Assembly (NCBI GenBank): GCA_937995745.1 | Contig: CALKIU010000069.1 | Span: forward strand, 33,337 to 97,336 | Origin: an uncultured Bacillaceae bacterium | GTDB taxonomy: Bacteria; Bacillota; Bacilli; Bacillales; Cytobacillaceae | Reading direction: 5' to 3' | DNA: 64,000 nt | In this document: positions 5,717-62,762 of the stretch, piece by piece | Layout of the letters: every line of letters starts with the position of its first letter | How positions within the stretch are numbered: position 1 is the first letter of the stretch | Program-made: the position numbers and the translations under genes | The notes under the pieces: model-generated | Database searches by the model: none | Seen by the model: only the letters and a program-made list of their open reading frames with translations | Told to the model about the DNA's origin: nothing

Positions 5717-7060
5717 GTGGGGAATCAGCAACCTTTAAAGCTGTTTTTGATGTTACTGATAAGCACGGTTTATATTTTCAGTTTCTCACAGATCGGTGCT
5801 TTGGCTTACAGTACTTTCTCAGAAAACCGCAGCTACTTCGCTGAAGGAACGATCATCGGAAATGTTCCCGTCGGCGGGAAGACGAAAAATGAAGCCGTTG
5901 CTCTCGTCGAAGAGGAGATTTCCAAATGGCTGGACCAAACGCGCATCACGCTTGAATACATGGGAAACAGCGAACCACTGGATTTAAGCTATATCGAATT
6001 TGATGCCCAAGCCAGCGTGGAAAATGCCCAAAGCGGCATCAGAAATCTGGTTGCAGCCACCATCTCGCCTCTTAATGAATTCTTAAAATCACTATCGCCT
6101 TCAATTAAATTGGAAGAATTTAATGTTAAAGCGCTGGAAAACGAAATATTGAATCATGCACAAGTTCTTGAACCCGGGGAATACATTTACCGAGTGGAAA
6201 ACTTTTATGTTTCGGCCTCATTAAAAGAAAGCACTGTCATAGAACAGTCGCCCATTGCCTTGAATCAGGGAGATGAAGAAATTAAAGTTTTCGACGGAAA
6301 AAAAATCAAAATTGAACCGAAAACTTTGTTTTCCTTGTTGAATTATCTAAAGGATGAACAGTTGCATACGTTATCGGAGCAAACGCTGAATAAAATTGCT
6401 TCCGCCGTTTATACGGTTATTTTGCCGACGAACTTTTCCGTTCTTGAACGACACATCAGCAGTACATTGCCCTCATATGCCGTACTTGGTTTTGAGGCAA
6501 AAGTGGATGTGAAAAAGAATTTTGACTTGGCCTTCTCCAATCCCAATGATTCCGAATATGCCATCGAGTTTGCGGTAAAAGACGGTTCTCTCGTTGTTTC
6601 TTTGACGGGGCCGGAGTTTTTGAATGAATACACCATCGCGTTGGATGATGAAAGATCATTTGAACCGAAAACGATTAAACAGTACAGTCCGCAAATTAAA
6701 ACGGGCAAGATTGTAAAATCCCAGGGACAAAAAGGTTTGTACGTCAAGGTGTATCGGGAATTGTACGATGAAAGCGGGGCACTGCAACAGAGGATGCTTG
6801 TGTCAGAAGATTTTTACGCTCCCGTTCACCGCATAGAAATTTATCCGTTGAAAAACGATGGCGTTGACGAATCAGTGATTGAGGAACAAGATGAAACCGG
6901 TGATGCCGATACCGATGAAAAAGCGACCGGTGAAGAAAACGGAACACAAAAAGACACGGAAGACAAGAAGCCTTCCGGTGAAGGCGGGGAAGGGAAAACC
7001 AAAGACGGACGTTCAGATGACGGCTTGTGGGGAAATCCCGATGAAATTACGAAAAAATAA
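5717..7060 (+). CDS. VanW-like protein with G5-like domain and acidic C-terminal tail
   Basis: N-terminal signal/anchor helix. VanW-like block LNKIASAVYTVILPTNFSVLERHISSTLPSYAVLGFEAKVD...DLAFSNPNDSEYAIEF. G5-like block PKTIKQYSPQIKTGKIVKSQGQKGLYVKVYRELYDESG. Confidence 0.45.
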   Translation: MGNQQPLKLFLMLLISTVYIFSFSQIGALAYSTFSENRSYFAEGTIIGNVPVGGKTKNEAVALVEEEISKWLDQTRITLEYMGNSEPLDLSYIEFDAQASVENAQSGIRNLVAATISPLNEFLKSLSPSIKLEEFNVKALENEILNHAQVLEPGEYIYRVENFYVSASLKESTVIEQSPIALNQGDEEIKVFDGKKIKIEPKTLFSLLNYLKDEQLHTLSEQTLNKIASAVYTVILPTNFSVLERHISSTLPSYAVLGFEAKVDVKKNFDLAFSNPNDSEYAIEFAVKDGSLVVSLTGPEFLNEYTIALDDERSFEPKTIKQYSPQIKTGKIVKSQGQKGLYVKVYRELYDESGALQQRMLVSEDFYAPVHRIEIYPLKNDGVDESVIEEQDETGDADTDEKATGEENGTQKDTEDKKPSGEGGEGKTKDGRSDDGLWGNPDEITKK

Positions 7061-7084
7061 GGACAGCACAACGGGGTTGATGCA

Positions 7085-8743
7085 ATGAAGAAAAGGACCC
7101 GGAAACGCCTCGGAGATTTACTTCTGGAAGCTGGCCTCATAACGGAGGAGCAGCTTCAATCTGCACTAAGGGACAGGAAGCCCAATCAAAAAATTGGGGA
7201 GGCTCTCCTGCAAAAAGGGTATATTACCGAGCAGCAGCTGATCGAAGTTTTGGAGTTTCAACTGGGAGTTCCCCATGTCAGTCTTTACGGATACCCGTTT
7301 GAAAAAAATTTGCTGAATCTTGTTTCAAAAGAAACGGCCAAGAGGCATCTTCTCATTCCCCTGAAAAAGCAAGGGGACAAGCTTTATATCGCCATGGCCG
7401 ACCCCCTGGATTTTATCGCCATAGAGCATTTGCGGCTGTCGACAGGTTTTCAAATAGAACCGGTTATCGCCAGCAAAGATGAGATTCTCCGGGCAATTAG
7501 CAGGTACTATGACGTTGAAGACGGGTTCGAGGAGTTTGCCGAAGAACCCGTCCGGCCAACGGAAACGGAAGACGTGACGGAACAGGATTCGCCTGTCGTC
7601 CGCCTTGTAAACCAATTAATCTCTAACGCTATCACTTTACGGGCAAGCGACATTCATATCGATCCTCACGAAACGAAGGTCGTTGTCCGCTACCGTATTG
7701 ACGGGGTTCTGCGGATAGAAAAGGTCTTGCCGAAATCGATGCAAAGCGTGATCACCGCAAGAATTAAGATTATGTCCAACTTGGATATTACAGAACACCG
7801 CATTCCCCAGGACGGCAGGATCAAAATAAATGTAGATGTCCGTCACGTCGATATCCGCGTTTCCACGTTGCCGACGATTTACGGCGAAAAAATTGTCCTG
7901 CGAATACTTGATTTCAGCGCAACGATCAGTGATTTGAACCGACTCGGATTTAACAAAGTGAATTTGGAAAGATATCTCAAACTAATCGAAAGGCCAAACG
8001 GCATCGTTTTGATCACCGGTCCGACCGGTTCCGGGAAATCGTCCACACTATATGCGACGTTGAACAGATTGAACAGTGAAGAGGTCAATATTATCACAAT
8101 CGAGGATCCGGTTGAGTACCAGCTGGAAGGAATTAATCAGATTCAAGTGAACCCGAATGTGGGAATGACATTTGCGGCAGGTTTGAGGGCGATCCTCCGC
8201 CAAGACCCGAACATTATCATGGTTGGGGAAATACGCGACAGGGAAACGGCGGAAATTGCCATCCGCGCCTCCATTACCGGACACTTGGTCTTCAGCACTT
8301 TGCATACAAATGACTCGCTTGGGGCCGTTACGAGATTAATAGATATGGGAGTGGAACCGTTTTTGGTGGCTGCTTCCGTCAGCGGCGTTGTTGCCCAGCG
8401 TCTTGTGAGACGGGTGTGCCGGGATTGCGCCGAGGAACATGAACCGACAAAAGTGGAACGGGCTATTTTCAGAAAACGAGGCTTAACAATTGACAGAATA
8501 GTCCGTGGAAGGGGCTGTTCATCATGCCATATGACCGGTTACCGGGGCAGGATGGCCATTCAGGAAGTTCTCATCATCGATGATGAAATGCGCCATGTGA
8601 TTACAAATAAGGAATCTTTCAGCAAGCTTCAGGAATTGGCCATTAAAAATGAAACCATTTTTTTGCTGGATGATGGGTTATTGAAAATTAAAAAAGGATT
8701 GACGACTCCGGAAGAAGTGTTGAAAGTAGCATTGCCGGAATAG
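7085..8743 (+). CDS. pilB: Type IV pilus assembly ATPase PilB (GspE family)
   Basis: N-terminal T2SSE_N-like domain (LGDLLLEAGLITEEQL), Walker A GPTGSGKSST, Walker B IIMVGEIRD, His box GHLVFSTLHTN, tetra-Cys CRDC...CSSC. Confidence 0.85.
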   Translation: MKKRTRKRLGDLLLEAGLITEEQLQSALRDRKPNQKIGEALLQKGYITEQQLIEVLEFQLGVPHVSLYGYPFEKNLLNLVSKETAKRHLLIPLKKQGDKLYIAMADPLDFIAIEHLRLSTGFQIEPVIASKDEILRAISRYYDVEDGFEEFAEEPVRPTETEDVTEQDSPVVRLVNQLISNAITLRASDIHIDPHETKVVVRYRIDGVLRIEKVLPKSMQSVITARIKIMSNLDITEHRIPQDGRIKINVDVRHVDIRVSTLPTIYGEKIVLRILDFSATISDLNRLGFNKVNLERYLKLIERPNGIVLITGPTGSGKSSTLYATLNRLNSEEVNIITIEDPVEYQLEGINQIQVNPNVGMTFAAGLRAILRQDPNIIMVGEIRDRETAEIAIRASITGHLVFSTLHTNDSLGAVTRLIDMGVEPFLVAASVSGVVAQRLVRRVCRDCAEEHEPTKVERAIFRKRGLTIDRIVRGRGCSSCHMTGYRGRMAIQEVLIIDDEMRHVITNKESFSKLQELAIKNETIFLLDDGLLKIKKGLTTPEEVLKVALPE

Positions 8744-8758
8744 GGGGAAACGGGGGCC

Positions 8759-11585: not shown

Positions 11586-12350
11586 ATGGCTAGTTTTGTC
11601 TTCGTCACAAGCTTTGTTGCAGGATTGGTCTTTGGCTCTTTTTTCAATGTCGTTGGATTGCGCGTCCCGGCGAAACAATCGGTTATAAGACCGCGTTCGG
11701 CCTGCCCCCGCTGCCGCCGTCCTTTGACAGCGGGGGAACTGATTCCCGTGTTATCTTATATCGTTCAACGGGGAAAATGCCGGACTTGCGGGGCGAAAAT
11801 TTCGCCTATATATCCGGCTGTCGAATTGGTGACCGGACTGCTTTTTGCCACCGCACCTTTTTTCGTTGGCTGGTCGGGCGACCTGTTGATTGCTCTGACT
11901 TTAATCTCTCTTTTTATGATTATTGTTGTGTCTGATCTTGCTTATATGATAATTCCCGACAAAATTCTTCTTATTTTTGCAGGAATCTTTTTTATAGAGA
12001 GGATATTTATGCCTCTGACACCGTGGTGGGATTCTCTCCTCGGAGCTTTGCTCGGATTTTCCGTCCTTTTCTTGATTGCCGTTATCAGCAAAGGCGGCAT
12101 GGGGGGAGGAGACATCAAACTTTTCACTTTAATCGGTTTTGCCACCGGTGTAAAAACGTTGACTCTTTCTTTTCTGTTGTCAGTGTTTTTGGGTGCCGTG
12201 TTCGGGGTCATCGGTCTTGCTTTCAAGTTCGTCAGCAAAGGCAAACCGATTCCGTTCGGTCCCTTTATTGCAGCGGGAACATTAATTTCCTATTATTTCG
12301 GAGATTGGATTGTCAAAAAATATATATACCTTTTTTCAGGCGGATTTTAA
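11586..12350 (+). CDS. pilD: Prepilin peptidase / N-methyltransferase (A24 family, PilD/ComC)
   Basis: N-terminal CPRC...CRTC zinc-ribbon-like Cys pairs, polytopic membrane protein, catalytic-Asp motifs VVSDLAYMIIPD and GMGGGDIKLF. Confidence 0.85.
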   Translation: MASFVFVTSFVAGLVFGSFFNVVGLRVPAKQSVIRPRSACPRCRRPLTAGELIPVLSYIVQRGKCRTCGAKISPIYPAVELVTGLLFATAPFFVGWSGDLLIALTLISLFMIIVVSDLAYMIIPDKILLIFAGIFFIERIFMPLTPWWDSLLGALLGFSVLFLIAVISKGGMGGGDIKLFTLIGFATGVKTLTLSFLLSVFLGAVFGVIGLAFKFVSKGKPIPFGPFIAAGTLISYYFGDWIVKKYIYLFSGGF

Positions 12351-12365
12351 ACGAGGGATCAAACG

Positions 12366-13373
12366 ATGAAACTAAATTTTTTTTCCAAGAAAAATGTTGT
12401 TAATTTGGTCATACAAGACTACTCCATCCGGTTTATGGAGTTGGAAAATGAACAATCCTCCATTCCTTACCGTTGGGGGGAACGTTATCTTCCGGCAGGC
12501 TTGATAAGCAACGGAACCATTAAAGATGTGGAAGCCGTCAGAACCATTCTTGAACAATGCGTCGATGAATGGAATATTCGTAAACGGCCGGTGCGCTTTT
12601 TGGTGCCCGATTCCTTTGTGAATATCCGCAAAGTGTCCATACCTGCCGATATTCAAGAAGATGAAATTTACGGGTATTTGTACCTTGAGATTGGTTCCAG
12701 CATTCACCTCCCCTTTACAGACCCAGTTTTTGACATCGTGCTGCTCGACGAAAATGGCGACCAGCGGGAGGTTTTGATTATTGCGGCAGAGGAAGAACAC
12801 GTGAAAATGTATGCCGATTTGTTGGAAAGTTGCAAATTAAAACCCATTGCCGCAGAGATTTCCGCATTGGCGCTTCACCGGCTGTATTATTCTCTCGGCC
12901 AGGCGGAAAAAGACGAACATCTTCTTGTTGCCCAATTTGACTTGGAAAAAGTAAACATCTGCATCTTTGCCGGAACCATCCCTTTGGTGATGCACCATAT
13001 TCCGATTGAAATTTACAGGGATCATTGGGATTTGCGCATGAATGAATCCGGCATTTATGAATGGCATTTTGTCGGCGATGCGGTAAAAGAAATCGACTTT
13101 CAATACAGCGATGCGTTTACGGAAATTGATAGACTTGCTGATTTTTACCGCTATTCATTGACTCACGGCAAATCAGAAATTACAAAGATGCTGGTTCATG
13201 GAGATCATCCCCTTTTGTCATTTATTCTCGACGAACTGAAAAGCCGGTTTGATATACCGATTGTGACAATCGACAAACAAAAACTGTCCGCAAAGTTTAA
13301 TAACCCTCTCCCGAGAAATTACCATCTTGTGATGGGACTTGCATTAAAAGAGGTGCAAAAAAATGTTGGTTGA
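12366..13373 (+). CDS. pilM: Type IV pilus assembly protein PilM (actin-like ATPase fold)
   Basis: 335 aa, position and size as PilM; overlaps the pilN start by 11 nt. Confidence 0.65.
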   Translation: MKLNFFSKKNVVNLVIQDYSIRFMELENEQSSIPYRWGERYLPAGLISNGTIKDVEAVRTILEQCVDEWNIRKRPVRFLVPDSFVNIRKVSIPADIQEDEIYGYLYLEIGSSIHLPFTDPVFDIVLLDENGDQREVLIIAAEEEHVKMYADLLESCKLKPIAAEISALALHRLYYSLGQAEKDEHLLVAQFDLEKVNICIFAGTIPLVMHHIPIEIYRDHWDLRMNESGIYEWHFVGDAVKEIDFQYSDAFTEIDRLADFYRYSLTHGKSEITKMLVHGDHPLLSFILDELKSRFDIPIVTIDKQKLSAKFNNPLPRNYHLVMGLALKEVQKNVG

Positions 13374-13968
13374 TATCAATCTCTTGCCGAAAAAAGAGGA
13401 GAAGGATCGCTCTCTCTTAATGCTGTTTATTGTACTCGGTTTGGTGCTGGGAGTTGGGTTGGTTTCCATTTTCTATCTTAACAGCCATTACAAAAAGAAT
13501 ATCAATTTGGTTCAACAGGACATTACTGCTACTAAACAGTTGATAGAACAGGTGCAAATGCAACTGGCCGATCTCGATCAATCGGAAGCGGTTGCCGAAT
13601 TGGAAAATGCCATTCATTGGGCTGAAATTTACCGTGCGAAAACAGTGCCGCTTTTAAAAGAGATTACTTCTCTTCTCCCTGAAAGAGGATTTGTAAAAGA
13701 ATTTGCTTACCAAGTACCGGGAACAGTCAGTTTGCTGGTGCAGTTTGATACAAACCGGGAAGGGGCCTACTTTTTGGATTATTTAAATGATGCCGAATGG
13801 GTACAAGAGGCAGAGCTGGAAAAGATGGAAGCCAGAGACCCGGAAGAAGAAGAGGTGGAAGCCGGCATTGAATTTGTTCCCAGATATCATGTCAATTATA
13901 AAATCCACATCGATCGAAAGAAAATTGCAGAACTTTCCGCCGACACGCAGGGAGGGGATGATTCATGA
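13363..13968 (+). CDS. pilN: PilN-like fimbrial assembly protein
   Basis: Canonical N-terminus MLVDINLLPKKEE followed by a single TM helix. Confidence 0.6.
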   Translation: MLVDINLLPKKEEKDRSLLMLFIVLGLVLGVGLVSIFYLNSHYKKNINLVQQDITATKQLIEQVQMQLADLDQSEAVAELENAIHWAEIYRAKTVPLLKEITSLLPERGFVKEFAYQVPGTVSLLVQFDTNREGAYFLDYLNDAEWVQEAELEKMEARDPEEEEVEAGIEFVPRYHVNYKIHIDRKKIAELSADTQGGDDS

Positions 13969-14744
13969 ATGGGAGACTGTCGCGCAACCAGAAATTGATT
14001 GCCGTTCTGTCTGCTATTGCGGTAGTGCTTATTTTAGCAGGGTGCTATTTCTTTATTTTGCATCCCCAAAAGGTGGAATTGGATAAAAGGAAAGCGGAAC
14101 TGAGAACAGAAGAGACGCTTCTAAAACAATTAAATACCCAGTTGAATCAAAAAAGTGCCATGACTTATGCGAGCACGGTCAGCTTGCAAAAACAGATTCC
14201 CGTCAAACCGCTCTTGGAACGGTTTATCCTCGATATTGAAAAGGCCGAGGTTTTATCAGGTTGCCTCGTAAAAGATTTCAGTGTCGGCGAAAAAAGCGGG
14301 ATTGAAGAAGTAGAAATGACGGAGATGGGAGAAACAGGGGCCGAAGCGGAAGAAAACATGGAAGCTGCCGCGAACACTGAACAGACAGTGGAAGAATCCG
14401 CTGAGCAGCCATCCAAAACCGGAGATACCGTTTTGCTCCCGAGCGGTTTTCGAAAGGTATCCATAAATTTAACTGTTTCCGCTCCCGGATATTATGAACT
14501 GGAAGAATTTATTAACATTCTTGAGAGGGCGGAACGAATCATGACAGTGGAAAACATCAAGTTTTCCGGCCCTGATGAAGTCGTCTCCCTCGAAGATGAA
14601 TCAGGCCCCCTTGAATTGGAACTGGTTGTATCCGCTTATTATATGCCTGGGCTGACGGAGTTGATTCATCAATTGCCGCGTATTGATAGTCCAACGCCCG
14701 GCAATAAAACGAATCCGTTGGCAACTTTTGGAGACAGCAAATGA
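13965..14744 (+). CDS. pilO: PilO-like pilus assembly protein with acidic insert
   Basis: N-terminal TM helix, then a coiled coil (KRKAELRTEETLLKQLNTQL). Start overlaps the pilN stop (ATGA). Assignment is mainly positional. Confidence 0.5.
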   Translation: MNGRLSRNQKLIAVLSAIAVVLILAGCYFFILHPQKVELDKRKAELRTEETLLKQLNTQLNQKSAMTYASTVSLQKQIPVKPLLERFILDIEKAEVLSGCLVKDFSVGEKSGIEEVEMTEMGETGAEAEENMEAAANTEQTVEESAEQPSKTGDTVLLPSGFRKVSINLTVSAPGYYELEEFINILERAERIMTVENIKFSGPDEVVSLEDESGPLELELVVSAYYMPGLTELIHQLPRIDSPTPGNKTNPLATFGDSK

Positions 14745-14751
14745 ACAATAA

Positions 14752-14786
14752 AAAGGCGTGATTCCCGCCCGGAATCGCGCCTTTTG
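14752..14786 (+). terminator. Intrinsic terminator closing the pilus operon
   Basis: AAAGGCGTGATTCC / GGAATCGCGCCTTTT hairpin. Confidence 0.6.
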
Positions 14787-14833
14787 CCGTTTTAAGCGTG
14801 CCATTTTCCTGAATGCTGTACGGTTAGGGGAAT

Positions 14834-16021
14834 TTGGCGAAATCTTTCCGAAAAGGGACGACAAAAGTCTCGCTCTTTTTTGTGAGTTTTGTGCTAGGAT
14901 ATAGTTTGACTTCCATACTGCATAAGAGAGGCGGGCGGTCAGAAATGGACAAGCGGCAGAACCGGCCAATCGTCATTAAGATAAACGGAAAAACAAGTTT
15001 GCTGCAAGGCAATACGTCCGAACAAGAACTTGGGAAAGAATCTGGTAGAAATAAAACAGAAGTTTTGCCAAAAAAGCAACCCGACGGAGAGAGTAAAGAA
15101 AACGCTGCAAAAATGAAGAATGATGCCGAAAGCCAGACGGCGGCTGCCCGGGAAGAACCGTTTCACTGGGTTCTCCCCGAAAACAAAGAGGGATATGATT
15201 TTTCCGCGCCGCCGGAAAAAAACATTCGGGTAAAGAGCGTTTTGAAAAAAATGCCGCTCCATTCGAAAACATTCTTTAAACATGATCAAAGCGGCAAACG
15301 AGCGTTTCTTTCCGCCCTTTTTATTATTTTCGCCGCTATATTGGTAGGAACGGGTTTCGGCCTGGCGATGTTGCACATGGTTGCTTCGGATCAAAAACAG
15401 GAAGCCAAAACGGTTTCCAATCCTGTAGAAAATGTTGAAGAAAACGGACAAGCCGGAATAGTAACGGATAAAACGGTTTATGTGATTCAGGGAGGCGTTT
15501 TTTCCACGGAAGCGGCGGCCGGGAACACTGTTAAAATGGCGGCGGAGCGGGGGGTTCCCGCCGGCATGCTAAAAATGGAGGGCCGCTATTTTATTTTTAT
15601 TGGGGTCGCGGACAGCATGGATGGAGCGAAAACGCTCGGGAATTATTTTGCTGGAAAAGGAATCGACTCCTATGCCAAGGAGATGAACTTTCATATCGAT
15701 GCAAAGACCGGTTTAAAGAAAGAAGAAATTGCATTTTTGGAAGAAGCGTCGGTGCTGTTCGACCGGTTGGCCGCCGCGAGCGCCGGCGGCATCATTTCGG
15801 GAACTGTTTCCGCGGATACAGATCCATCCCTTGCCGAGCTTTTGGACCGCTGGAATAAAATAAATGAGAACGATATTTCACGGCCTGAATTGAAAGAAAT
15901 AAAAAGGGAATTGGATCTGGCCGTTAAAAAACTGTCCTCCCATCACGATGGAAGTGAGCGTTTAATCAGCGTCCAACAGCATCTCGTAAACGCGCTCGTT
16001 TTCTACCAAAAACTTTCTTGA
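14834..16021 (+). CDS. spoIIB: SPOR-domain membrane protein, SpoIIB-like
   Basis: N-terminal TM, charged linker, second TM. C-terminal SPOR-like block VYVIQGGVFSTEAAAGNTVKMAAERGVPAGMLKMEGRYFIFIGVADS. Sits immediately upstream of maf, as spoIIB does in B. subtilis. TTG start is uncertain. Confidence 0.45.
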   Translation: MAKSFRKGTTKVSLFFVSFVLGYSLTSILHKRGGRSEMDKRQNRPIVIKINGKTSLLQGNTSEQELGKESGRNKTEVLPKKQPDGESKENAAKMKNDAESQTAAAREEPFHWVLPENKEGYDFSAPPEKNIRVKSVLKKMPLHSKTFFKHDQSGKRAFLSALFIIFAAILVGTGFGLAMLHMVASDQKQEAKTVSNPVENVEENGQAGIVTDKTVYVIQGGVFSTEAAAGNTVKMAAERGVPAGMLKMEGRYFIFIGVADSMDGAKTLGNYFAGKGIDSYAKEMNFHIDAKTGLKKEEIAFLEEASVLFDRLAAASAGGIISGTVSADTDPSLAELLDRWNKINENDISRPELKEIKRELDLAVKKLSSHHDGSERLISVQQHLVNALVFYQKLS

Positions 16022-16248: not shown

Positions 16249-16818
16249 ATGAAAAAATTGATATTGGCTTCATCTTCCCCGAGAAGGAAAGAACTTCTCG
16301 AAAATCTTCGTCTTTCTTTTGAAGTTCACAGCAGCAATGTTGATGAACGTTTTCCCCCTGATTTGCCGCCGCATGAAATCGTTATGGAACTGGCCAAAAG
16401 AAAAGCGCAATATGTCGCCGAAATATTTCCGGATTCTTATGTAATCGGTTCCGATACGATTGTGGTCTTAGACGGGAAAATTCTCGGAAAACCGCAGGAT
16501 CCCCAAGAAGCGGCAAAGATGCTCCGAACCTTGAGCGGAAGGACGCATCATGTTTATACAGGTGTAGCGATTTTCAGTCCGGAAACGCATGTGACGTTTT
16601 TTGACAAAACGGAGGTGGTGTTTTGGGAGTTGACAGACGAGGAAATTGAAAATTATGTAAAAAGCGGCGAACCTCTTGACAAGGCAGGAGCCTATGGCAT
16701 TCAAGGTTTGGGCAGTCTGCTCGTCAAGAAGATTAATGGCGACTATTTTTCCGTCGTGGGCCTTCCCGTGTCAAGAACCGCCCGCGAGCTCCGGAAATTG
16801 GGATATCCTTTGCCTTGA
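16249..16818 (+). CDS. maf: Maf nucleoside-triphosphate pyrophosphatase (septum formation protein)
   Basis: MKKLILASSSPRRKELL...GSDTIV...GAYGIQG, 189 aa, the same length as B. subtilis Maf. Confidence 0.85.
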   Translation: MKKLILASSSPRRKELLENLRLSFEVHSSNVDERFPPDLPPHEIVMELAKRKAQYVAEIFPDSYVIGSDTIVVLDGKILGKPQDPQEAAKMLRTLSGRTHHVYTGVAIFSPETHVTFFDKTEVVFWELTDEEIENYVKSGEPLDKAGAYGIQGLGSLLVKKINGDYFSVVGLPVSRTARELRKLGYPLP

Positions 16819-16880
16819 ATTGTCCCGTCATCTCCCCGCCGCCTCTAACGGGAGGGATATATTTGGCAAAGAAAAATTTG

Positions 16881-17411
16881 ATGATAAAAGATTTTCCGGA
16901 AGATGAAAGACCAAGGGAAAGATTTGTCAAATACGGCCCTGAAAGCCTTTCCAACCATGAATTGCTTGCCATTTTGCTGCGGACAGGAACAAAAGATGAA
17001 TCTGTCCTTCAATTGGCCAACAGGCTGTTAAAATCTTTCGACGGCTTGAGAATGTTGAAGGAAGCTACACTGGATGAAATCACGGCCATCAAAGGAATCG
17101 GAAAAGCGAAAGCGATTCAGATTTTGGCGGCCATTGAAATCGGCAGGAGAATAGCCAATCTCAATTACAATGAACGCTATGTTATTCGTTCTCCGGAGGA
17201 TGGGGCCAATTACGTCATGAACGATATGAGATTTCTGTCCCAGGAACATTTCGTTTGCCTTTACCTCAATACGAAGAATCAAGTTCTCCACAAAAAAACC
17301 GTTTTTATCGGCAGCTTAAACGCCTCCATTGTACATCCCCGCGAAGTTTTTAAAGAAGCGTTGAAACGTTCTGCAGCCTCCGTCATCTGTTTCCACAATC
17401 ACCCGTCAGGC
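16881..17411 (+). CDS. radC: RadC (JAMM/MPN+ family), exon 1 of 2
   Basis: MIKDFPEDERPRERFVKYGPESLSNHELLAILLRTGTKDESVLQLA...ICFHNHPSG. The frame then enters intron sequence (GTGCG...) and hits a stop at 17448..17450. Confidence 0.8.
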
Positions 17412-17632
17412 GTGCGCCTGCAAGGTGTGTCATTTCAGCGATTTTTATAAATCTGGAATTCCTTACAATATTCCATGGTCAGCATCTTACCTCCGGGGGA
17501 AACCTTGAGGGGGGAACATAGCATGATGTCAAAAGGAGAAGAGACGACGAAGCTGTCTGGTCGAATCGCTTCTTCAGGCCAAGTGGTGTATGGTAAAGGC
17601 TATACTGCTTGAATCCCAGACGGTTGAGCGTT

Positions 17633-17637
17633 GGGTG
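17633..17637 (+). other. Candidate EBS2 of the intron
   Basis: GGGTG at intron nt 222-226 is complementary to exon positions -12..-8 (CACCC). Confidence 0.4.
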
Positions 17638-17689
17638 CGCCGTTGCCTATGACAGCTGACAGGCAATGTGGACAAAATGGGAGATGCAG

Positions 17690-17696
17690 CGCCTGA
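17690..17696 (+). other. Candidate delta + EBS1 of the intron
   Basis: C-GCCTGA at intron nt 279-285 is complementary to exon -6..-1 (TCAGGC) plus the first nt of exon 2 (G). Confidence 0.5.
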
Positions 17697-17894
17697 GCAC
17701 TTCCATAGTAAGGTTTGTCCATCAGGCCTCCGTCCGGAGGAAACCGTCGAAAAGGATACCTAACCACCACGCATCTGAAATGGCGCATAATGCAGGGATT
17801 ACCTTCGTGCAATGGCCGTTTTAATGGTTTTCGGCGATTGCATATGGTAACGGAGTCTCCATAGTACCCGACGTTTGCCTGTAATGGGTTTAGC

Positions 17895-19313
17895 ATGGGG
17901 AAGGGAGACAGGCTGACGAATCCGGCAAAGGAAGTCATGAATATGGCGAAAAATCCGTTCAAGCAGCTTGAAACTATAAAAATTGCCGCGCAAAAAGGGA
18001 GACGGATCACCGATTGTTTTCGTCTGTTATATAAAGAAGAACTTTGGCTCAAAGCATTGGAACGTTTACAATTGCCTAAAAGCGGTTCTTATCGGACGGA
18101 AGCCGCTTGTTTGGAGGAAATCAGGCGATCGATCGAGAATTTAAGAAATGGCGCGTATCGCCGCACCTTTTTTGCTTCCCCCATGAAAGGAAATGAGGAT
18201 GTAAAACCGTTTCTTAAAGAATTTCTCCTTTTGGAGGCGATGAGATTCATTCTCGAAGCGGTGTTTGCGCACCGGATATCCTCCGCAAAACATATGGAGG
18301 ATTCAAGAGCGCCTTTTGCTGCCTTACTCAGAGTAAAGAGAACTTTTGGCGCTTACACCTGGTGCATAAAAGGCGAAATCGCCTCCGGTATTTGCAGCCG
18401 CCAGTTATTGCAGTTCGTAGGGGCAAAAATTGACGACAGGCGCTTTCTGTATATAATCAAGAAAGTCTTGGCATCGGGCATTCTCAAACACAGACGGGCC
18501 CGTTCATTCCGCGGATTATTGGAGCGGATTTGCTTTTCGGAATTGGATCACTTTGTGCAAATATGCGCAGAGAACTATTTTCGCCGGAAAGAGCATTTCG
18601 GAAAAATAAATTATATCCGATCCGGACGTGAATTCGTCATCGGCTTGTCCTGTACAAAACAGTTGGCGCGCAGCCTGCTCGCGGATTTGGAGATATTCCT
18701 GTATGAACAGCTTGGCTTCAGTAAAAGTGAAAGCCGGGTACAGCTCTTTCATTTGGAAAAACGTGTCCCTTTTCTCGGCTACGAATTTTGCCGCTTGAAG
18801 CAAAGGAAAAGCGGGCACAGCCCGGAAAGAGCGCGGTTAAAACCGGCCGGAGAACTTGCGGGACCGACAGACCGTAAAATTATTTTACTCATACCGGACC
18901 GGAAAATAAGGGAGTTTGCCCGAAAAAAGGGATATGGCCTGTTGGAAAACGGCGTCATTTCCCATCGGAAAAAATTAATCCATAAGACGGAAGAGGAAAT
19001 TTTGGCTCTTTATAATAAAGAACTAAAAAATTTTGCCCAATACTACCGGTTGGCGGCAAATATCCATCATTTAGACAAGCTTTTTTATATTGCCCGGGGA
19101 AGCTTTTTTAAAACGGTCGCGGCAAAGCGAAAAAGCTCTGTTGCTAAAACAGCGGAACATTTGCGGAAAAAAGGATTGCGGATCGTCAGCCGGCGAGCCG
19201 TATACTTCGAAAGGAGTACGTACGGTTCTGAGGGAGGGGAGGAAACCTGCCCTTTATCCGGCAAGGCGCCTTATCCCGACCCTACGATCCGACACCGAGC
19301 AGAGAGGATATAG
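17895..19313 (+). CDS. Intron-encoded protein: degenerate reverse transcriptase with retained maturase (X/thumb) domain, no DNA-binding/endonuclease domain
   Basis: Collinear by eye with LtrA-type IEPs. The YADD position reads [17 protein letters not shown] reads KPFLKE, and GDIKGCFD reads GEIASGIC. The X domain is kept ([45 protein letters not shown]). The start may be ATG 17937 or 17943. The stop lies in exon 2. Confidence 0.7.
19195..19228 (+). ncRNA. Group II intron domain V
   Basis: 34 nt with the AGC triad, an AC bulge and a GAAA tetraloop; differs from my recollection of Ll.LtrB domain V only in the upper stem and loop. Confidence 0.8.
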
Positions 19314-19426
19314 ATGTGACGAAGAGACTTGCAGAATCAGGAAAAATTCTCGGCATTGAACTGCTGGATCACGTCATTATCGGAGAAAACAAATATGTCA
19401 GTTTAAAGGAAAAAGGCTATATATAA
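19286..19426 (+). CDS. radC: RadC, exon 2 of 2
   Basis: [46 protein letters not shown], the conserved RadC C-terminus completing the JAMM motif. Phase 0 with exon 1. Confidence 0.8.
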
Positions 19427-27984: not shown

Positions 27985-28110
27985 TGTTATCTTCGTAGCA
28001 CCCGTGCTACAACCGCTCGGTACGGGTTACAAGTTCTCCTTTTGCATGCGCGGTTTTTTATCGCGCCGTTCAAAAGGATGACACCCGGTCTGGCGAGTCT
28101 TAGTAATTAA
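27985..28110 (+). ncRNA. Probable ribosomal protein L21 leader
   Basis: A ~125-nt structured untranslated leader between the promoter and the rplU RBS, in the position of the Firmicute L21 leader. Hairpins visible by eye: GTAGCACCCGTGCTAC and GCGCGGTTTTTTATCGCGC. Not checked against a covariance model. Confidence 0.4.
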
Positions 28111-62494: not shown

Positions 62495-62762
62495 AAAAGG
62501 ACAACCGTTGATGGAGAAAAGTAGTTAAGAAGCATGTGGAAAGAGAGGAAATGCCGCGGCTGAAAGCATTTCTCCACAATGCCTTAACGAACGACACTCC
62601 GGAGGTTTCATTCCGAAAGAGCCGTATCGAGGTTTTAGTAGGGATGAACGTAGACAGGCGTTAACTGTAAAAGTGGAAGTTTACCTGTTAAACTTCAATT
62701 AGGGTGGCACCACGGGAATATCAACTCTCGTCCCTTGTATTCAAGGGGGAGGGTTTTTTTGT
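62495..62762 (+). promoter_or_regulatory. T-box riboswitch leader (specifier loop reads GAACGACACUCC; GAC Asp and CAC His overlap)
   Basis: AGTA box, AGAGAG box, distal GGCTGAAAG. T-box sequence AATTAGGGTGGCACCACGGG at ~62698..62717. Terminator hairpin CCCTTG tattc AAGGGGGAGGG followed by T7 at 62726..62762. Confidence 0.85.

Follow-up and report, generated by a model that had tools for sequence, protein, structure and literature searches.

Can a conserved chromosomal gene still be expressed when a group II intron lies inside its catalytic motif, and what becomes of an intron that has settled in such a place? The question is raised by the radC gene (ysxA/UPF0758, coding for a JAMM-domain protein) in a 64,000-nucleotide (nt) stretch of DNA from an uncultured Bacillaceae bacterium (assembly GCA_937995745.1, contig CALKIU010000069.1, positions 33,337 to 97,336). 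The whole stretch is called the window here, positions are counted from its first base, and the parts of radC and of its intron all lie on the + strand. Bacterial group II introns are usually portrayed as selfish retroelements that avoid housekeeping genes. The insert in radC (17412..19285, 1,874 nt, GUGCG...CCCUAC) is very probably a group II intron of the mitochondrial-like type (ML, structural class IIA; ML/IIA) that has become immobilised, or 'domesticated', in the chromosome of a Robertmurraya/Neobacillus-like member of the Bacillaceae. The protein encoded by the intron has lost the active site of its reverse transcriptase (RT), which is a more unusual feature than the interruption of radC itself.

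The two ends of the interruption are 17411/17412 and 19285/19286, with the codons of HNHPSG before it and those of DPTPS after it. The split thus falls inside the JAMM motif (H-x-H-x7-S-x-x-D), between G177 and D178, and is in phase. Exon 1 (16881..17411) has 177 codons from the ATG at 16881, and matches Pfam UPF0758_N (1.1e-31) and positions 1-76 of Pfam RadC (PF04002; RadC/JAB); an alternative TTG start at 16863 would give a RadC of 229 amino acids (aa), a form found in relatives. Exon 2 (19286..19426) has 46 codons plus the stop, begins with DPTPSRED, translates as the C-terminus of RadC, and matches positions 77-121 of the same model. Since the two matches are contiguous, with neither gap nor overlap, the junction is exact to the residue. 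The spliced RadC of 223 aa shares 84-89% identity over 100% of its length with the uninterrupted RadC proteins of Robertmurraya, Neobacillus, Cytobacillus and Bacillus methanolicus; the motif HNHPSGDPxPSRED is gapless in all these close relatives, in keeping with the placement of exon 1. Ligated exons would read ...CAC CCG UCA GGC|GAU CCG ACA..., which restores HNHPSG-DPTPS, and the expected junction string is CACCCGUCAGGC|GAUCCGACACC (also written CACCCGTCAGGC|GATCCGACACCGAGC). If unspliced, the open reading frame (ORF) 16815..17450 continues from ...ICFHNHPSG into VRLQGVSFQRFL and stops at 17448-17450. Exon 2 lacks its own start and comes into frame only once spliced. Gene callers list a truncated radC and a 'hypothetical protein' at this locus.

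The ends of the insert (GUGCG and CCCUAC) agree with the group II consensus (5' GUGYG, 3' AY), and the same termini were found in every locus fetched with both flanks; such related loci, fetched for comparison, carry L-numbers below. The Rfam model RF00029, which describes domains V and VI (DV and DVI), matched 19193-19285 with 60 bits (gathering threshold 40, E=2.7e-9), and the match stops on the last base of the intron. DV (19195..19228) is a 34-nt hairpin with the AGC triad and a GAAA tetraloop, which was also matched by RF04356 at 19195-19228. It is invariant across the loci except for the distal stem, which covaries. DVI (19230..19283) contains a bulged branch-point A, A19279, which is the seventh base from the 3' end.

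The 5' domains were resolved by comparison. An alignment (A2) of the 5' 560-600 nt of 20 radC introns was folded with RNAalifold, which gave DI, DII and DIII. In the window, DI (17417..17796) is closed by the helix CCUGCA/UGCAGG, which is seen in the consensus structure as well as in the minimum free energy (MFE) fold of the single sequence; DII (17799..17850) is shorter than in a 2,534-nt form of the intron found in relatives; and DIII (17855..17909) comprises helices 23-25 of the consensus, with compensatory changes in six pairs. The consensus of DI to DIII has 147 pairs, with 98.9% of the alignment cells paired and compensatory changes in 41 pairs. None of 500 shuffles equalled this support, and slid controls were about 41% paired. 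RNAalifold also paired exon bases (CA.CC) with GG.UG after DIII, which was judged spurious and removed before the pairs were counted. The window sequence makes 146 of the 151 consensus pairs, and four of the five that it lacks lie in a single small DI hairpin, which is deleted in this clade. The MFE fold of the window sequence alone has the same architecture (z=-3.07). The basal stem of DIV is formed by GGCUGACGA (17911..17919) and UCGUCAGCC (19183..19191), a perfect 9-bp complement. Within DIV, a Shine-Dalgarno-like AAAGGAAG is followed by a conserved hairpin at 17934-17947 (together 17926..17947), in which the ATG codons 17937 and 17943 lie. This DIVa-like hairpin (helix 26 of the consensus) is 100% paired in the 20 sequences, and by analogy with DIVa of Ll.LtrB it would be the site where the maturase binds. 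In one relative only, L018 (Mesobacillus stamsii), DII contains several tandem copies of a ~19-nt motif, TAGACATTAGTCTATGAAA (alignment A2, columns ~480-575).

The initial annotation had placed the split within the codons of the JAMM motif, with radC resuming in phase 1,874 nt later, and had argued from the stop at 17448-17450 that full-length RadC needs splicing; the contiguous Pfam matches and the gapless relatives are in full agreement. Its description of the insert as a group II intron with a 34-nt DV and a bulged A 7 nt from the 3' end also held. It had further proposed that the folding of domains I to IV be checked and that intron-less alleles be sought. The comparative structure and the DIV stem show that these domains do fold, albeit with no match to an Rfam D1-D4 family, and intron-less alleles with the identical junction exist in Robertmurraya, Neobacillus and Cytobacillus. 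The loss of the RT active site from the encoded protein had escaped the initial annotation.

The sequences for exon recognition could also be located. The intron-binding site IBS2 (CACCC, 17400..17404; exon positions -12 to -8) pairs at 5/5 positions with GGGUG (17633-17637), a candidate exon-binding site EBS2 in the 7-nt loop of a hairpin (17628..17640) with the invariant stem GCG/CGC. This pairing (CAYCC/GGGUG) was found in each of the 39 loci in which the motif of the EBS2 hairpin could be placed. Another candidate for EBS2, the GGUG at about 17581-17584, was dropped, as it lies within a consensus helix and is mismatched in L009-L021. IBS1 (UCAGGC, 17406..17411; positions -6 to -1) forms six of six Watson-Crick pairs with EBS1 (GCCUGA, 17691-17696), which occupies the loop of the hairpin 17685..17699. 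In L011, L020 and L021 the two elements read UCCGGU and ACCGGA, which is a compensatory double change. The candidate delta base C17690, immediately 5' of EBS1, is able to pair with G19286, where exon 2 begins; both are invariant across the loci, so that covariation gives no readout for this pair. Recognition of the 3' exon by delta-delta' next to EBS1 is the IIA mode, whereas IIB introns use EBS3. The RT-intact copies usually have 5/6 pairs between EBS1 and IBS1, falling to 2-4/6 in copies with other final exon codons (Ser=AGY, for instance); the EBS1 of mobile copies is often mismatched to the resident IBS1 at a wobble base. Four of the RT-intact loci (L014, L019, L022 and L034) seem to have two neighbouring DI hairpins with swapped loops, and the EBS1-type loop UAUCGCCAGAG is on the second hairpin, not the first (A2 columns 300-340).

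Whether this intron is still spliced can be judged indirectly from the exon behind it. When the window, L008 and L009 were compared among themselves and with L010, the nonsynonymous differences per site (pN) in exon 2 were 0-0.04, versus 0.4-0.9 for synonymous differences (pS). No stop codon or frameshift was present in exon 2 in any of six diverged loci. The alternative is a dead intron that no longer splices, so that radC would be a pseudogene giving a truncated product of 189 aa that ends at 17450. Such decay could be read from the mismatch adjoining the branch A, and from the trimming of DII and of one DI hairpin; moreover, what RadC/YsxA does is poorly defined, and radC is possibly dispensable. 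But exon 2 can be read only via splicing and is under strong purifying selection, which makes a dead intron in a pseudogene very unlikely. The ribozyme also argues against it, with 146 of 151 pairs kept in the window, compensatory changes across the clade, and an EBS1/IBS1 pairing that has co-evolved to 6/6; so does the intron-encoded protein, with a ratio of nonsynonymous to synonymous substitution rates (dN/dS) of about 0.2. Hardly any probability is therefore left for a dead intron. We infer that the radC intron is spliced, as selection on exon 2 and on the ribozyme, exon-binding sites and maturase would suggest.

The intron-encoded protein (IEP; 17943..19313) has 456 aa from MAKNPF, or 472 aa from the first ATG at 17895. 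In Pfam it matched Intron_maturas2 only and RVT_1 was absent; it scored 27 bits against the group II RT/maturase equivalog of NCBIfam (TIGR04416), the cutoff of which is 300. Alignment with RT-bearing relatives from the same radC site (A1) showed that the Asp of motif A is replaced by Glu (GDI to GEI) and YADD by SGRE, so that all three catalytic Asp are lost. The RT2 loop, the PQG block of RT4 and the insertion between RT4 and RT5 are deleted. The DNA-binding (D) and HNH endonuclease (En) domains are absent, and the alignment ends after the X domain. RT activity has thus presumably been lost. The protein itself is nevertheless constrained: dN/dS was 0.235 against the 66%-identical orthologue of L008 and 0.20 against the 50%-identical one of L009, with constraint in every region except a short linker. 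A profile of the IEP family matched LtrA (5g2x) with E=5.5e-96 among solved structures, versus 1e-23 or weaker for other intron RTs. The AlphaFold model (pLDDT 76.6, pTM 0.74) had its best Foldseek match in 8h2h_D, LtrA bound to its intron (E=2e-15). By these matches the IEP falls in the ML class; the layout of the exon-binding sites is the IIA pattern, and the RNA is probably of the IIA class. It looks like a maturase-only protein of the MatK kind, with an LtrA-like scaffold and the X/thumb maturase domain.

The end of the IEP is peculiar. The last ~40 residues are a translation of DV and DVI, and pLDDT is below 50 over residues 416-456. The reading frame has no stop within the intron; it passes DV, DVI and the 3' splice site, and stops at 19311-19313, 28 nt into exon 2. 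A stop in exon 2 was also found in L008 (+104 nt) and L009 (+26 nt), with different tail frames, and is confined to the sub-clade of these two loci and the window. A complete, terminated protein could thus be made only from the unspliced precursor, with ribosomes crossing DV and DVI, and the excised intron would be a non-stop mRNA for the IEP. It is a speculative idea that the synthesis of the maturase might be coupled to the amount of unspliced RNA.

These features raise the possibility that the intron has been co-opted as a regulator, with splicing set by maturase level, temperature or stress, so that it gates RadC and perhaps read-through into the genes downstream. The locus lies in the gene string maf-radC-mreBCD-minCD, and the intron is directly upstream of essential cell-shape genes. 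It has been retained while synonymous sites became saturated, its start codon lies in a conserved hairpin, and in the window, L008 and L009 only the unspliced precursor could yield the complete protein. On the other side, an intron-less radC suffices in closely related species, the missing stop is limited to one sub-clade, and persistence is equally explained if no precise deletion of the intron occurs without RT. A regulatory role, which would be compatible with a domesticated intron, is considered improbable, although less so than a dead intron.

If the intron is an immobilised, splicing one, the following course may be proposed. It would be transcribed together with its radC exons, and the gene order makes a transcript of the maf-radC-mreBCD-minCD string probable; the 456-aa IEP would bind the intron RNA and aid its folding. 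EBS2 and EBS1 would hold IBS2 and IBS1, by the pairings found here, and splicing would go by branching, with an attack on the 5' splice site by the 2'-OH of A19279, as expected from the chemistry of the group II family. The delta pair C17690-G19286 would position exon 2, and ligation of the exons would restore HNHPSG-DPTPS. With neither RT nor endonuclease, retrohoming would not take place, and the intron would be passed on vertically; both the motif losses and the pattern of divergence among relatives point to this. The element was probably derived from the 2,534-nt mobile intron with its 629-aa RT-X-D-En protein.

Relatives of the intron were found at the same site in 31 genomes of Bacillaceae genera and in one Thermotaleaceae metagenome-assembled genome (MAG). 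In every locus with both flanks, the intron lies at HNHPSG|DPxPS (HNHPSN in the one Thermotaleaceae locus). The genomes include four of Oceanobacillus (L032, L036, L038 and L042). In the species of the window, the order maf-radC-IEP-mreB was present in all 22 contigs that were read for the identical protein. The same site is occupied in metagenomic relatives with 67% down to 33% identity, and further divergent maturase-only proteins have the same radC context. A metagenome scan with the alignment of the degenerate family, in which a single peptide pattern was used, yielded 6 loci only.

The mobile form is a 2,534-nt intron coding for a 629-aa RT-X-D-HNH protein with intact YADD. Among the RT-intact copies, 65 of 66 pairs have introns that are more alike than the radC exons around them (medians 0.82 vs 0.66). 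This pattern indicates that the 2,534-nt form is an active homing intron, specific to this radC site, which spreads horizontally among Bacillaceae. Several copies of this type already show early decay, including YAGD, YAED, YSDD and YADI in place of YADD, a truncated En, and frameshifts. The reduced introns are 1.8-2.1 kb long, with maturase-only ORFs of 370-490 aa and perfect EBS1/IBS1 pairing. The window intron is not the smallest of its kind, as L056 has 1,801 nt and L052 has 1,846 nt. The degenerate copies behave in the reverse way: in all 15 pairs compared, the introns resemble each other less than the exons do, and intron divergence scales with exon divergence. The degenerate introns therefore appear to have been inherited vertically over a long residence in radC. 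They form one long-branched clade in a neighbour-joining (NJ) distance tree.

The RT-intact intron of the MAG Thermotaleaceae bacterium AA5 (L023, 3430-5963) deserves separate mention. It is 91% identical to the copy of Bacillus sp. USDA818B3, while the exons share 54%. Its host gene is a Clostridia-type radC with HNHPSN, and EBS1 pairs with two of the six IBS1 bases. Either a very recent transfer between classes or an artefact of binning could account for it.

The loss of RT in the IEP would not by itself immobilise the intron if RT and endonuclease came in trans from a related intact intron at another place in the genome, as for the bacterial ORF-less introns. These nearly always co-reside with related intact introns (Zimmerly and Semper, PMC4424553), and the inspection here covered 64 kb of the genome. 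Within this 64-kb window there is no second RT-like ORF or DV. The unchanged context in 22 of 22 contigs, and the divergence of the degenerate introns beyond that of their host exons, also argue against continued mobility; the lineage has no known homing site besides this one, which is occupied. The probability of mobility in trans is thus rated as very small, close to that of a dead intron.

The reading of an immobilised but spliced intron is preferred, and some observations weigh against it. The base pair adjoining the branch A is mismatched in the sub-clade (A-G in the window; A-G or A-C in the sub-clade), and DVI scores about 5 bits below the RT-intact relatives. No Rfam D1-D4 family matched over 17300-19400 (E<=1). 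The last point was attributed to a subclass that has no model, and not taken as evidence against an intron, because a different intron in L019 did match RF02004 and because the comparative structure is strong. The monophyly of the degenerate forms depends on an NJ tree, a method prone to long-branch attraction. Only 64 kb of the genome was covered, as noted above, and both the splicing of radC and the loss of RT activity are deduced from sequence comparison.

Degeneration of the IEP is rare in bacteria; in 2015 a single bacterial example was recognised, the O.i.I2 intron in radC of Oceanobacillus iheyensis, the ML-class IEP of which lacks YADD (Zimmerly and Semper, PMC4424553, summarising Simon et al. 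2008). It is listed as group IIA (PMC8283771). An intron in a radC-family gene was also reported from the B. cereus group (Tourasse and Kolsto 2008, PMC2504315). Beyond PMC4424553 and PMC2504315, the literature searches revealed no lineage-level account of radC introns. The initial annotation had considered the interruption of a conserved ORF uncommon; at this site of radC it is not unprecedented, given these two reports and the occupation of every flanked related locus. O.i.I2 resembles the window intron in its RadC host gene and in its ML/IIA IEP, which lacks YADD and other RT motifs and keeps its ORF open, so that a retained maturase function is implied. It differs in the host genus, and in that it was described as the sole bacterial case, against at least 39 clusters found here. 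Neither O.i.I2 nor O. iheyensis was among the matches of the protein searches or the genome scan; from the four other Oceanobacillus genomes, O.i.I2 probably belongs to the same lineage and site.

Comparison with better-known systems places the element further. Ll.LtrB of Lactococcus lactis is the model ML/IIA mobile intron, and its LtrA protein is the closest solved structure (5g2x, 8h2h_D). The layout of IBS2 (-12..-8), IBS1 (-6..-1) and the candidate delta' (+1) is the same, and the start-codon hairpin is at the DIVa position. LtrA, however, is an active RT with D and En, and Ll.LtrB (~2.5 kb) retrohomes; the IEP of the 1.87-kb window intron is without the three catalytic Asp, RT4, D and En. 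The trnK intron of land-plant chloroplasts with MatK and nad1 intron 4 with MatR are likewise IIA-type introns in housekeeping genes, the maturases of which have lost RT motifs and kept domain X (PMC4424553). Like the window intron as it is read here, the trnK intron is immobile, vertically inherited and splicing-only (PMC4424553). MatK is organellar and serves several introns in trans, whereas the window shows a single cognate intron, and the likeness is one of mechanism, not of family. The introns of Geobacillus kaustophilus recA and of cyanobacteria likewise interrupt conserved chromosomal ORFs and make expression dependent on splicing, and to our knowledge introns of this kind keep RT-competent IEPs. 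The class is mentioned in PMC4424553. The element seems ordinary in mechanism but belongs to a rare, already reported bacterial category, that of splicing-only introns with MatK-like maturases in housekeeping genes.

This category seems far larger than published accounts suggest. After an exhaustive HMMER search against 1.84 billion cluster representatives, the maturase-only clusters (at 50% identity) numbered at least 39, versus a single cluster for the still-mobile form. The N-terminal signature of the lineage was present in 36 new representatives, 35 of which lack YADD, each with different replacement residues; the remaining one is the intact 629-aa form. Each intermediate stage is found in living species: the loss of En, point mutations of YADD, deletion of RT4 and trimming of the ribozyme. 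On balance, we lean towards the view that the window intron is the tip of a large and old family, the splicing-only introns of which have MatK-like maturases and are passed down vertically with Bacillaceae chromosomes, a bacterial replay of organellar intron domestication.

Loss of RT with retention of the maturase has been held to be an organellar specialty, with one bacterial case recorded. The window adds a second well-documented case, and the comparison of relatives indicates that the splicing-only state is common and stable within one lineage. If the view is right, the replay would be a genetically tractable one, possibly with feedback, since the maturase would be completed only from the unspliced precursor. 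The lineage would offer a graded natural series from mobile to splicing-only introns in cultivable and genetically tractable Bacillaceae, suited to studying how mutual dependence arises between an intron and the gene that hosts it; models of how spliceosomal introns originated include such a step.

Some Bacillaceae radC genes carry group II introns at two further sites, here called A and C (the site described above being B), so that single radC genes hold two introns. Site A lies after ...HPREV (about residue 156) and is occupied in L022 (888-3366), L046 (910-3366) and L018 (974-3292). The IEPs of sites A and B share 44% identity, and the site-A IEP lacks YADD in Mesobacillus stamsii. Nine further proteins of 430-480 aa without YADD (P0221, P0229, P0239, P0246, P0254, P0271, P0272, P0285 and P0289) have an N-terminus (MRNPxVVL...RLYRNLYN) that resembles the site-A IEP. 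Loss of RT may thus also be common in the site-A lineage. Site C lies after ...LLDH (about residue 206) in L019 (~6057-8751) and L026 (~6057-7790). The site-C intron is of a different class (Rfam group-II-D1D4-5), and its ORF is decayed in Niallia.

Directly upstream of maf-radC, at about 11586-16021, the window contains type IV pilus or competence-like genes (a prepilin peptidase A24, PilM, and PilN/T2SSM-like ORFs), as read from Pfam matches in the same-species loci L004-L007. A scan for promoters and terminators around radC and mreB showed no difference from shuffled sequence. Elsewhere in the window, a T-box leader (62499-62738, 141 bits) and a ribosomal protein L21 leader (28001-28110, 51 bits) were found, which are ordinary cis-regulators of Bacillaceae.

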